Part shown: positions 26,558 through 54,976 of the stretch, in pieces | Numbering within the stretch: position 1 is the stretch's first letter | How the letters are laid out: each line of letters begins with the position of its first letter | Sequence record: MF158046 | Source: Shigella phage Sf23 | Strand: one strand, 5' to 3' | DNA: 64,000 nt | Program-made: the position numbers and the translations under genes | The notes under the pieces: generated by a model | Database searches by the model: none | What the model was told of the DNA's origin: nothing | The model's input: only the letters and a program-made list of their open reading frames with translations

Positions 26558-27028
26558 TTAATCATGTTTCCACACCCCATCGGTATTTGACCAAAGTCGC
26601 TGATTATCTGATCCTCGCCACAGCTTTTTAGTCGGAAGATTTTTCTCATACTTCCCATCAATAATAACATCAACATATTTAAGCATTTCTAGTTGTTTAA
26701 TATCTTCAAACTTATATCCTGTCCACAACCAAATGCTTTTATTGGGATAAAGATTTTTTACTGTTTGAACCACAGAGTGAATCACGTCTCTGTTATCAGG
26801 ATAAAGAGGGTCACCTCCGGTTATAGTTAATCCTTCTATATAATCATTATTCAAACATTCAATTAATTGTTCTAGTGTTTCACCAGTGAATGGAATACCA
26901 TTTCTAGCATTCCATGTTGATTTATTATAACACCCTTCGCATTTATGCAAACAACCTGTAACGAAAAGAACGACCCTGCATCCAGGGCCATTCACAAAAT
27001 CGCAAGGATAAAATCTATCATAATTCAT
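26558..27028 (-). CDS. nrdG: anaerobic ribonucleotide reductase activating protein NrdG (radical SAM)
   Basis: 156 aa as in T4; Cys cluster CLHKCEGC. Confidence 0.9.
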   Translation of the reverse strand: MNYDRFYPCDFVNGPGCRVVLFVTGCLHKCEGCYNKSTWNARNGIPFTGETLEQLIECLNNDYIEGLTITGGDPLYPDNRDVIHSVVQTVKNLYPNKSIWLWTGYKFEDIKQLEMLKYVDVIIDGKYEKNLPTKKLWRGSDNQRLWSNTDGVWKHD

Positions 27029-28842
27029 TGGTGTTTAACCCTATGCATGATTTCTTTATTTTTACCGAGATTAAATCCGCGTTCGTTCGGATTTCCCAAA
27101 TAACCACATGTTCTTCTTATTGTGTTCATCTTTTTAGGATCAGTTTCTCCACAAATAGAACAAACAAATCCGTTTTCAGTAGGAGTCATTTCATGGGTAC
27201 TTCCACACGTAAAACATTTATCTACTGGCATATTAACACCAAAATAATCTAAATGTTGTGCAGCATAATCCCATACGGCCTCAAGACCCTTTAAGTTATT
27301 TTTCATATCAGGAAGTTCAACATAAGAAATGTGACCACCTGTCGCAATGAAATGATATGGCGCTTCACGAGAAATCTTTTCAAACGGAGTAATATTTTCT
27401 TCTACTGAAACATGGAAACTGTTAGTGTACCAGCCTTTATCGGTAACATCTTTTACGCTTCCATATTTTTCTGTATCGAGTTTACAGAAGCGATAGCAGA
27501 GGTTTTCAGCAGGAGTCGAATATAAACTAAAAGCAAATCCGGTTCTTTCAGTCCACTGTTTAAGATGAGCATTCATTTTAGTTAAAATTTCTTGTCCAAT
27601 ATCACGACCGACAAGAATATTTAATTCGTGAATACCAATGTATCCTAGGGACACTGAACTTCTACCGTTTTTAAATAACTCAATTATGTCATCGTCAGGT
27701 TTAAGACGAACCCCGAATGCACCTTCTTGGTAAAGAATAGGAGCAACAGTTGCTTTAACTCCTTTTAAGGAACTAATTCTACACATCAAAGCTTCAAAAC
27801 ATAAATCCATTCGTTCATTGAACAATTCAACAAATTTCTGTTCATTGAATTGTGTTCCAATATAAGAATCTAATGCAATACGAGGAAGATTCAGTGTTAC
27901 AACGCCAAGATTATTACGTCCATCAAGAATTTCATTACCAGTCGAATCTTTCCATACGCTCAAGAAACTGCGGCAACCCATTGGAGAAACAGGAATAGAT
28001 GAACCTGTGATAGCTTTATTGTTCTTAGCTGAAATAATATCAGGATACATTCTTTTGCTTGCACACTCTAGAGCAAGCTGCTTAATATCATAGTTCGGAT
28101 CGTCTTTATAAAGATTAACACCTTCTTCAACGAACATAACAAGCTTAGGGAAAATAGGAGTTATCCCATCGCGACCAAGGCCTTTAATACGATTTTTCAG
28201 AATTGCTTTCTGAATCATTCGTTCAGTCCAGTCAGTTCCCGTGCCAAATGTAATTGTTACAAAAGGCGTTTGTCCATTTGAACTAAAGAGAGTATTTACT
28301 TCATATTCATAAGCTTGGAACGCATCGTATACGTCTTTTTCTGTTTTAGATTGGGCATAATTCAACGCATCAGCGATTTGCCATTTTTCTGCATCCTCAA
28401 TATGTTTTGCATAGGTGCGTTTAACATAAGGAGAAAGTACTTTATCTACATTAGCAAAAGTCGTTCCGCCATATTGATGGGAAGCAACTTGCGCAGTAAT
28501 TTGTGCCATAATTGCAGTAGCAACGCCAATTGATTTAGGAGTTTCAATCTGTGCATTACCAAGCTTAAATCCGTTCTCAAGCATTCCTTTTAAATCTACT
28601 AAACAGCAATTAGTAAATGGAAGAGCAGGGGAATAATCAATATCATGGAAATGAATAATTCCGCTTTCATGCGCTTTCATAATAAAAGACGGGACCATAT
28701 TTTTGGCAATGTGTTTAGACACAATACCAGCCATAAGGTCCCGTTGAGTTGGAAAAACACGAGAATCTTTATTAGCATTCTCGTTTAAAAGGTCTTTATT
28801 AGTTTTATGAATCAATCCTTCAATTTCTTTTTCAATTGTCAT
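27025..28842 (-). CDS. nrdD: anaerobic ribonucleoside-triphosphate reductase NrdD, uninterrupted
   Basis: 605 aa continuous ORF; C-terminal zinc ribbon CFTCGS...CSICG and glycyl-radical motif RTCGYLG. Confidence 0.95.
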   Translation of the reverse strand: MTIEKEIEGLIHKTNKDLLNENANKDSRVFPTQRDLMAGIVSKHIAKNMVPSFIMKAHESGIIHFHDIDYSPALPFTNCCLVDLKGMLENGFKLGNAQIETPKSIGVATAIMAQITAQVASHQYGGTTFANVDKVLSPYVKRTYAKHIEDAEKWQIADALNYAQSKTEKDVYDAFQAYEYEVNTLFSSNGQTPFVTITFGTGTDWTERMIQKAILKNRIKGLGRDGITPIFPKLVMFVEEGVNLYKDDPNYDIKQLALECASKRMYPDIISAKNNKAITGSSIPVSPMGCRSFLSVWKDSTGNEILDGRNNLGVVTLNLPRIALDSYIGTQFNEQKFVELFNERMDLCFEALMCRISSLKGVKATVAPILYQEGAFGVRLKPDDDIIELFKNGRSSVSLGYIGIHELNILVGRDIGQEILTKMNAHLKQWTERTGFAFSLYSTPAENLCYRFCKLDTEKYGSVKDVTDKGWYTNSFHVSVEENITPFEKISREAPYHFIATGGHISYVELPDMKNNLKGLEAVWDYAAQHLDYFGVNMPVDKCFTCGSTHEMTPTENGFVCSICGETDPKKMNTIRRTCGYLGNPNERGFNLGKNKEIMHRVKHQ

Positions 28843-37974: not shown

Positions 37975-38015
37975 TAGTTGTATAGTACCATAAAGCTTTA
38001 TGCTTGTAAACCGTT
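37975..38015 (-). promoter_or_regulatory. early-type promoter, conserved extended family
   Basis: Same consensus (GTTGATAGTTGTATAGTACCA...GTAAACCGTTTTGTGAAAAATTTTT on plus); follows a terminator hairpin. Confidence 0.55.
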
Positions 38016-38025
38016 TTGTGAAAAA

Positions 38026-38050
38026 TTTTTGAAATAAAAAAGGGAGCCCG
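38026..38050 (-). terminator. rho-independent terminator
   Basis: GGGAGCCTTCGGGCTCCC followed by TTTTTT on the minus strand. Confidence 0.7.
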
Positions 38051-46500: not shown

Positions 46501-46802
46501 TAGTATTTTTCCTCTGGTTGGAACACTGCGCGACAAGCCCACATACTAGCTTCTTTGAGTTTCGTTTTAGCAATAGTTAACTGATCGAGGCTTTCAGCAT
46601 AATTCTTCGCGAGTTCATCATCTTCACAGCTATCGAATGCTTCCCAGAATTCATCGTATAAAGCATCAAAGATAAGTCCTAAACGAACTTCAGCGTCTTT
46701 GATAGCATTCACTTTACCGATTTTCTCTTCAGTATGCGGCTTATAACCTTTAATGTCTTCAATCATATTTGACTTCCTCACCAGTACATAAATCATATTC
46801 AA
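46500..46802 (-). CDS. hypothetical small helical protein (vs.4 position; candidate Acb2-type cyclic-nucleotide sponge by synteny only)
   Basis: ORF at the position of T4 vs.4; true start may be the internal ATG (~88 aa). Confidence 0.45.
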
Positions 46803-46980
46803 CTAAACGAATAGGTTCATGAATGCCATATCCTTGAACAGAAATTTCTGTCGTAGGATAAATTCCATCAATATCACCCATATTCCAGGCTTCATTAAAT
46901 TGCTGTTCGCCTGAATTACTAAACCACTCGGCGAAAGCATTTAGCACATCTTTAGAACCTTCAATAATTATCTTTGCCAT
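46759..46980 (-). CDS. hypothetical protein (73 aa)
   Basis: ORF coupled to neighbours. Confidence 0.45.
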   Translation of the reverse strand: MAKIIIEGSKDVLNAFAEWFSNSGEQQFNEAWNMGDIDGIYPTTEISVQGYGIHEPIRLVEYDLCTGEEVKYD

Positions 46981-47342
46981 TACAAACTCTCAGTAAAGGT
47001 ACGAGCGATAACGTCGCGCTGCTGTTCCGGAGTCAGAGAGTTAAAGCGAACTGCATATCCGGATACACGGATGGTCAGCTGCGGATATTTTTCCGGATGC
47101 TTAACTGCATCTTCCAGAGTTTCGCGACGCAGAACGTTAACGTTCAGGTGTTGACCACCTTCAATTTTAACTGTAGGCTGTGGCTCAATTTCAATTTCAC
47201 GGGCATGCAAACCATAGAAAATTTCTGGGTCTACAAAAGAGTCCTCTTTAAAGGTTTTAGAAACGATAATTCGTGCTTGAATACCATCTTCAAAATAAAT
47301 AGTACCTTTATGTGTGCCTTCAAGAATTTGATATGCTTTCAT
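46980..47342 (-). CDS. autonomous glycyl radical cofactor (GrcA/YfiD-like)
   Basis: 120 aa; C-terminal half [60 protein letters not shown] carries the glycyl radical motif RVSGY and matches E. coli GrcA as recalled. Confidence 0.85.
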
Positions 47343-47349
47343 ATAAACC

Positions 47350-47679
47350 TCAATTAGAAAATAAATTTATCCAAGATTGTTCTTTAATTAAAAACGGCTC
47401 AGAATCATATGCCATTAAACTTTGGGTAATTAATCCTTTAAAAGGTCCATCAATAAATTCCATGGTAAAATATGGAATTTTATTCATTAACTGCGCGTTA
47501 GGAGCAGTGCACAAAACTCTGCATCCTTTGAATACGCCTTTTTGTAATTTGTATTGCTTGGGATAAAATTCGCTCAAAATGTTATTATTTGCCAAAATTT
47601 CAAAATGATTCACCAATTTATTTTTAATAGTTTTTGGCGAAAAATAAAGATATTCGAAAAGCTGTGTGTCTGTCATCAT
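47350..47679 (-). CDS. hypothetical protein (109 aa)
   Basis: ORF. Confidence 0.45.
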
Positions 47680-54873: not shown

Positions 54874-54877
54874 AAAT

Positions 54878-54964
54878 TGGTGGGGAGTGATGGAGTCGAA
54901 CCACCCGAGTCGCAATGACAATGGATTTACAGTCCACACCGCTACCTCTACGGGATAACTCCCC
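54878..54964 (-). tRNA. tRNA-Tyr (anticodon GUA), class II with long variable arm
   Basis: Hand-folded: acceptor GGGGAGT/ACTCCCC, anticodon loop CTGTAAA, long variable arm GTCATTGCGACTCGG, T-loop TTCGACT, CCA encoded; resembles E. coli tRNA-Tyr. Confidence 0.75.
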
Positions 54965-54976
54965 TAATTCATAATT

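Follow-up and report, generated by a model that had tools for sequence, protein, structure and literature searches.

The glycyl radical domain of a T-even phage spare-part gene, vs.6, matches Escherichia coli grcA almost base for base and was probably acquired by homologous recombination with the host gene

The DNA analysed here, a stretch of 64,000 nt from Shigella phage Sf23 (sequence record MF158046; hereafter the window), belongs to a T-even phage of the genus Tequatrovirus. It carries a gene of the vs.6/Y06I type whose stop codon overlaps, in TAATG, with the start of the ORF that follows, and this 73-aa ORF is apparently translationally coupled to vs.6. The features of the locus, together with the one distant gene that bears on its interpretation, are as follows.

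47350–47679, minus strand: 109-aa ORF upstream of vs.6, at the position of T4 ORF 63.4; no family match.
46980–47342, minus strand: vs.6 (Y06I-type gene), ATG start, encoding a 120-aa autonomous glycyl radical cofactor homologous to GrcA/YfiD.
47165–47342, minus strand: 5′ half of vs.6; 45.5% nucleotide identity to E. coli grcA, GC 0.345, GC3 0.20.
46990–47164, minus strand: putative host-derived tract (gene nt 179–353, residues ~60–118); glycyl radical domain attributed to E. coli grcA.
47055–47069, minus strand: RVSGY glycyl radical motif, residues 92–96, located by translation and alignment.
47058–47060, minus strand: Gly95 codon of vs.6, GGA (GGT in E. coli).
46980–46989, minus strand: final 10 nt of vs.6 (..G AGT TTG TAA), phage-type.
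46759–46980, minus strand: 73-aa ORF downstream of vs.6, its ATG overlapping the vs.6 stop; no family match.
27025–28842, minus strand: anaerobic ribonucleotide reductase NrdD (NCBIfam NF006732, 909 bits).

The gene lies in the early region among densely packed small ORFs, with denV/ipIV-like genes on one side and regB, vs and tk on the other. Both the gene order (denV - ... - vs.6 - ... - regB - ... - tk) and the overlapping neighbour ORFs are those of T4 and T2. The vs.6 gene region is 100% identical to that of Escherichia phage vB_EcoM-Sa45lw and, over 363 nt, the gene shares 98.1% identity with T4 ORF 63.1 (X04567) and 98.3% with T2 vs.6; a single residue separates the window protein from T4 Y06I (R73 in the window, H in T4). 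Orthologues are annotated as vs.6 in T2, as ORF 63.1 in T4 (X04567) and as "autonomous glycyl radical cofactor" in many of the more recent entries. The window protein is matched by the Pfam profile Gly_radical with 66.8 bits (cut-off 22.2) and by the NCBIfam GrcA profile TIGR04365 with 153.3 bits, residues 20–120 aligning with profile positions 25–126. The latter score falls below the equivalog cut-off of 170 (E. coli GrcA scores 234) because the N-terminal half has diverged. Among PDB structures, E. coli YfiD (6OWR) gives the best match (E 9e-42). The gene is, accordingly, an allele of T4 vs.6/Y06I, an element that is already known, as is its function. A 127-codon ORF with a TTG start on the plus strand (46974–47357) covers the entire gene; the composition of the coding strand is its most likely cause, and it is not supported as a gene.

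Residues E61–L120, which include R92-V93-S94-G95-Y96, are 100% identical (60/60) to residues 68–127 of E. coli GrcA, as an earlier sequence-only reading of this DNA had suggested for the last ~60 residues and the RVSGY motif. The likeness extends to the DNA, where gene nt 179–363 agree with E. coli grcA at 181 of 185 positions, a match present in all 5426 of 5426 complete E. coli genomes. Between nt 179 and 353 the agreement with K-12-type grcA reaches 174/175, synonymous sites included, so that the ordinary divergence from the host gene that would have spoken against a host origin was not seen. Within the tract only gene nt 285 is mismatched, in the third position of the Gly95 codon (GGA vs GGT); the other three mismatches fall in the last three sense codons (GAG AGT TTG vs GAA AGC CTG) and are synonymous. 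Upstream, the first 178 nt of vs.6 are just 45.5% identical to E. coli grcA. MaxChi locates the breakpoint between gene nt 178 and 179 (window positions 47165/47164; chi2 123.7), and none of 2000 permutations reached the observed value (permuted maximum 20.2). The sharp nucleotide boundary that had been predicted near 47160 is therefore borne out. In a megablast comparison with all E. coli genomes, the tract is the only segment of the 64-kb window common to all E. coli chromosomes. Elsewhere in the window, positions 37993–38044 show a 52-nt match of 96% to two places on one E. coli chromosome (BE104), with no annotated feature there, and positions 54875–54967, in the phage tRNA region, show a match of ~91% to a tRNA-Tyr annotated on E. 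coli plasmids; the search with this tRNA region returned 264 plasmid places in all, with most plasmid records at 80–90% identity.

The composition changes at the same point. GC3 rises at the breakpoint from 0.20 in the 5′ half to 0.45 in the tract, and GC from 0.345 to 0.51. The long ORFs of the window have a mean GC3 of 0.24 (sd 0.06), which places the tract at z = 3.3; only 0.3% of 58-codon windows reach a GC3 of 0.45. Leucine is encoded by CTG in 5/5 codons of the tract (8% in phage ORFs) and proline by CCG in 3/3 (16% in phage ORFs). The comparison of codon usage across the boundary that had been proposed thus finds host-type codons inside the tract.

To place the donor, the last 183 nt of the gene were compared with 81 bacterial grcA genes from species-representative genomes. 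Identity was highest with E. coli (179/183), followed by another Escherichia sp. (176), Citrobacter amalonaticus (166) and Salmonella (153), and no grcA nearer than that of E. coli was found for the T-even phages in this set. These alignments identify E. coli as the donor of the T-even tract. In E. coli, grcA is complete, keeps its syntenic place between ung and eamB, resembles the genes of other Enterobacteriaceae from end to end and shows host codon usage. The composition of the tract, in contrast, is foreign to the phage, and the direction of transfer is accordingly from host to phage. The genes pflB and tdcE were rejected as donors: the places in E. coli besides grcA, presumably pflB and tdcE, are only ~60–80% identical. 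The corresponding tract of a Klebsiella phage is 83.5% identical to E. coli pflB and 85.7% to E. coli grcA. Among the bacterial records, the grcA of Klebsiella aerogenes NCTC10006 (LR134122; L177:200-600) carries a frameshift shortly ahead of the radical motif and bears the annotation of a truncated "pyruvate formate-lyase"; a sequencing error may lie behind this, or the gene may be a pseudogene. The plasmid collection contains several multi-megabase chromosomes filed as plasmids, and in Klebsiella sp. WOUb02 (L025) a full-length grcA lies on a replicon of 276 kb that carries the label of a plasmid (unnamed4).

The N-terminal half of Vs.6 is itself a strongly diverged GrcA N-terminal half, with alignments beginning at residue 20 (NCBIfam profile) or 22 (YfiD), and its DNA is ~80% identical to the 5′ half of vs.6 in Jiaodavirus, a genus of Klebsiella T4-like phages. 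The description of this half as phage-specific does not hold as regards its origin; the half is diverged from the host gene (45.5% nucleotide identity). At the other end, the gene finishes with GAG AGT CTA TAA in Pseudotevenvirus, Slopekvirus and one of the two groups of T-even alleles described below (group B), and with GAG AGT TTG TAA in the window. The flank 3′ of the tract comprises only 10 nt, which carry three synonymous differences from E. coli and resemble outgroup phages. From the GrcA-like 5′ half common to other T4-like genera and the phage-type last 10 nt, we favour, on this sequence evidence, a gene conversion patch inside an older full-length phage grcA homologue over a captured 3′ fragment. 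The right end is less certain because its evidence consists of 10 nt in which the ribosome-binding site of the following ORF probably also lies (X04567, the T4 record, annotates a potential one); if selection for this downstream site had later fixed three point mutations, they could mimic the end of a patch. The suggestion that the host sequence had entered by capture or gene conversion agrees with the near-identity at synonymous sites, the sharp breakpoint and the host-type codons, with gene conversion the favoured form.

Ten T-even alleles were compared to assess the timing and number of such events, and they form two groups by their 5′ half: group A (the window, T4 and loci L096–L099) and group B (Mosigvirus SF, Tequatrovirus JK45, L100 and L101). 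The synonymous divergence (dS) between the groups is 0.35–0.54 in the 5′ half of vs.6 and 0.07–0.30 in the 3′ half (gene nt 181–363, which contains the tract). Seven synonymous codon differences are fixed between the groups in the 5′ half and none in the tract (Fisher p = 0.004); a plain count of segregating synonymous sites, 5′ half against tract, is not significant (p = 0.18). DNA identity between the groups is 48–85% in the upstream gene, 82–95% in the 5′ half of vs.6, 95–98% in the tract and 65–73% in the downstream gene. By these comparisons, the tract is of far more recent date than the divergence of the phage DNA around it.

The tracts of L098 (group A) and L101 (group B) are both identical at 175/175 positions to grcA of E. 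coli SK1144, and the 5′ halves of the same two alleles differ at 19/180 nt. The sole tract site that separates SK1144-type from K-12-type grcA is phage nt 219 (C or T). In E. coli this polymorphism divides the genomes roughly in half (2904 vs 2522, by identity band); among the phages, C is found in the window and L096, and T in most others. The window thus carries the K-12-type C, and the T4 tract has T at nt 219 plus one non-synonymous change. All ten T-even alleles have the same left junction, nearly all have 354G and 357T at the right end, and the group-B 5′ allele occurs in both Mosigvirus (SF) and Tequatrovirus (JK45). The shared left end is uninformative on whether there was one event or several, since homology to host grcA ends at this point. 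Taken at the level of these alignments, host sequence probably entered the T-even lineages, or was refreshed in them, more than once.

We then considered vs.6 in other phages, covering 80 IMG/VR loci and 14 GenBank phages, among which long runs near-identical to host grcA were confined to T-even phages and Jiaodavirus. In Jiaodavirus, represented by the loci of KPV15 (KY000080, L121), L178, L179, L180 and L086, a closely related 5′ half (GC 0.36) is followed, from the same left junction, by a GC-rich tract (0.56–0.59; in KPV15, 0.58 against 0.36 in the 5′ half). Over 158 nt, this tract agrees with K. pneumoniae grcA at 157 positions in KPV15, 155 in Roth16, 154 in OU509536, 148 in W1W2-10 and 147 in KP179; its identity to E. 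coli grcA is ~86%. It ends on the right at ~nt 338, compared with ~353 in T-even phages. By donor and extent, the Jiaodavirus conversion from K. pneumoniae grcA is an event independent of the T-even one. The Jiaodavirus phages differ from one another at 4–15/158 positions in the tract and at 1–6/178 in the 5′ half, the latter comparison excluding KPV15, and this higher diversity of the tract suggests several donors. Two metagenome scans yielded no nearer donor for the W1W2-10 and KP179 tracts; the second returned two Enterobacter-like alleles that are no closer to these tracts than K. pneumoniae. In KPV15, a 1-nt deletion frameshifts the 5′ half of vs.6, which prevents its comparison.

A swap of the radical-domain cassette at the same junction is also indicated by the alignment of two Krischvirus alleles, TB34 (L092:267-683) and JSE (L093:267-683), which show 1 difference in 234 nt ahead of the EGGQH codons and 48 in 183 nt beyond them (p = 4e-18). 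In JSE, a homing endonuclease gene lies directly downstream of vs.6. Ordinary divergence was found in Pseudotevenvirus, Slopekvirus, Karamvirus, T5-like phages, a Vibrio phage and Serratia phage BF, which show 72–88% DNA identity to the best bacterium even with a nearly identical protein. Among the matches listed for the GenBank phages examined, none to Salmonella or Enterobacter grcA was near-identical or exceeded ~84–86%; the Enterobacter-grcA query placed one further GenBank phage record in the 90–95% band. A further set of contigs, L116 (IMG/VR 3300008607_000007) with its sisters L114–L119 and L126, carries a grcA-like gene of 130–137 aa whose closest bacterial grcA is that of Haemophilus. 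In L116 (401-790), no more than one mismatch to Haemophilus grcA occurs over a run of 74 nt, where the sister contigs show many; this run may be a short conversion patch, although the evidence is only suggestive.

As regards function, Andorfer et al. (PMC8683613), in reporting the work of Wagner et al. (2001), describe YfiD and T4 Y06I as spare-part proteins of ~14 kDa, in which the PFL activase installs a glycyl radical and which restore the activity of pyruvate formate-lyase that oxygen has cleaved at Gly734; both activation and rescue by T4 Y06I were, according to the same account, demonstrated in vitro. They further describe YfiD residues 1–60 as disordered and helpful for binding and activation, and residues 61–127 as folded like PFL 693–759 (PMC8683613). 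In the window protein, residues 58–120 align with PflB 697–759 (E 5e-26), and by this alignment the limits of the phage tract and of the folded radical domain nearly coincide. The equivalence of the phage N-terminal half to that of YfiD would depend on the published T4 experiment. A role as a spare part for a glycyl radical enzyme damaged by oxygen, which the sequence-only reading had put forward, is established for the T4 orthologue Y06I, and by analogy it may be extended to the window protein, which differs from it by one residue. The accompanying idea that such a part fits with the phage's own anaerobic NrdD finds no support in the sequences and is at most contextual: the radical motif of NrdD is RRTCGYLG, and a BLASTP comparison of Vs.6 with the window NrdD detected no NrdD-type glycyl radical domain, which is marked by an RxCGY motif after a zinc-ribbon (E = 3.9). 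Because Vs.6 has no detectable similarity to NrdD, whose radical site differs, the most likely client, as far as the alignments go, is host PflB, perhaps also TdcE, with host PflA as the activase.

The gene and its biochemical role are known from T4, and the window adds no new system. T4 Y06I (vs.6, ORF 63.1, X04567) is also 120 aa long and flanked by the same neighbours, with allelic differences only. E. coli GrcA (YfiD, 6OWR) is likewise a stand-alone protein of ~14 kDa with an N-terminal half followed by a folded radical domain; in the phage protein the N-terminal half is shorter by 7 residues and shares an identity of about one-third with it. The E. coli gene lies between ung and eamB, whereas the phage gene is part of an early-region operon with overlapping ORFs. 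The glycyl radical domain of PflB (1H16, 2PFL), which aligns with phage residues 58–120, is the piece that the spare part replaces; in PflB it is embedded in an 85-kDa enzyme, while the phage protein is small and separate. The Jiaodavirus gene (KPV15, Roth16, KP179) is an orthologue with the same left junction, and differs in its donor, K. pneumoniae, and its right end at ~nt 338. A comparable case is psbA of cyanophages, in which intragenic recombination between host and phage has left host-identical patches and a mosaic with host-like composition. It is likewise a phage-borne host metabolic gene with a mosaic structure, in another gene, other hosts and another context of phage lifestyle; unlike in psbA, the vs.6 patch coincides with one structural domain and has the same junction in several enterobacterial phage genera. 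We found no published account of the vs.6 mosaic in the literature searched, which did not cover key T4 papers.

We consider it highly probable (roughly 90%) that vs.6 is a T-even spare-part gene, an old grcA homologue whose radical segment was overwritten from E. coli grcA. Gene nt 179–353 of the diverged phage homologue would have been replaced by homologous recombination with the chromosomal gene. The left end of the patch would lie at the EGGQH codons, where the likeness between phage and host stops, and the right end ~10 nt before the stop codon. That vs.6 alone was converted may be explained by its conserved radical domain, which would keep phage and host DNA similar enough for homologous recombination; each conversion would then restore full homology and so could enable the next one. 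After infection, host PflA would install the radical on Gly95, and the C-terminal domain of Vs.6 would dock into host pyruvate formate-lyase whose C-terminal radical fragment oxygen had removed. Fermentative production of acetyl-CoA and formate could be restored in this way while the phage shuts off host gene expression, and the benefit to the phage would presumably be that fermentative energy metabolism is kept up during microaerobic infection.

Several other explanations have to be weighed against this one. The radical domain is highly conserved at the protein level in all phage and bacterial homologues, so an ancient phage grcA could have kept its C-terminal half unchanged under extreme purifying selection, with no recombination at all. 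Selection on the protein leaves synonymous sites free, yet the tract matches in DNA at 174/175 positions; phages of other genera that encode these 60 residues unchanged or almost so reach just 72–88% DNA identity to any bacterium, and host codons and GC3 begin abruptly at the breakpoint. We regard this explanation as extremely improbable. Identity alone gives no direction, and a transfer from phage to E. coli, or contamination with host DNA or an assembly chimera, would also produce it; nothing specific speaks for these alternatives. E. coli grcA is a complete, syntenic gene that groups with the grcA genes of Enterobacteriaceae and uses host codons; the composition of the tract is foreign to the phage, and hundreds of phage genomes sequenced independently, T4 (X04567) among them, contain the tract with substitutions private to phages. 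The probability of either is practically negligible. As to the client, the encoding of NrdD in the same window and the role in nucleotide metabolism speculated on in an earlier comparative paper (PMC1524935) would suit a spare part for phage NrdD rather than for host pyruvate formate-lyase. The C-terminal domain is, however, identical to that of host GrcA and matches PflB 697–759 without detectable similarity to the NrdD site, and the rescue that has been published is that of PFL by Y06I (PMC8683613), which makes NrdD a very unlikely client.

The overwriting of an old phage homologue by E. coli grcA may have happened once or repeatedly. A single capture in the common ancestor of Tequatrovirus and Mosigvirus, followed by persistence or spread from phage to phage, would mean that conversion from E. 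coli is not ongoing. The left junction shared by the ten T-even alleles, with 354G and 357T in nearly all, accords with this, and T-even phages recombine freely with one another, which could also have brought the group-B 5′ allele into both Mosigvirus SF and Tequatrovirus JK45; one recurrent C/T mutation would account for both states of nt 219. Against a single capture stand the identity of 95–98% between the groups in the tract compared with 48–90% in the flanks, the absence of fixed synonymous differences in the tract against seven in the 5′ half, the exact agreement (175/175) of alleles of both groups with a present-day E. coli allele, and the presence in phages of both states of an E. coli polymorphism. 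The common left end would be expected in any case, as homology with the host gene ends there. We find a single capture doubtful, though it deserves serious consideration. Repeated conversion would make the radical-domain half of phage grcA-like genes such as vs.6 a cassette that is overwritten time and again by the grcA allele of the current host, in an ongoing concerted evolution that links a strictly virulent phage, one that degrades host DNA, to the chromosome of its host. Homologous recombination at a fixed junction, the EGGQH codons, would drive this process, which would also be self-reinforcing. This reading is supported by donors in E. coli and K. pneumoniae (at least two independent) and by the Krischvirus swap, and in our view it stands at about even odds.

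The noteworthy part of vs.6 is the origin of its radical domain: a stretch of 175 bases in a virulent phage that is, in sister phages, letter-identical to a current E. coli allele. Such a tract would offer a clean natural marker for homologous recombination from host to phage in phages that destroy the DNA of their host.
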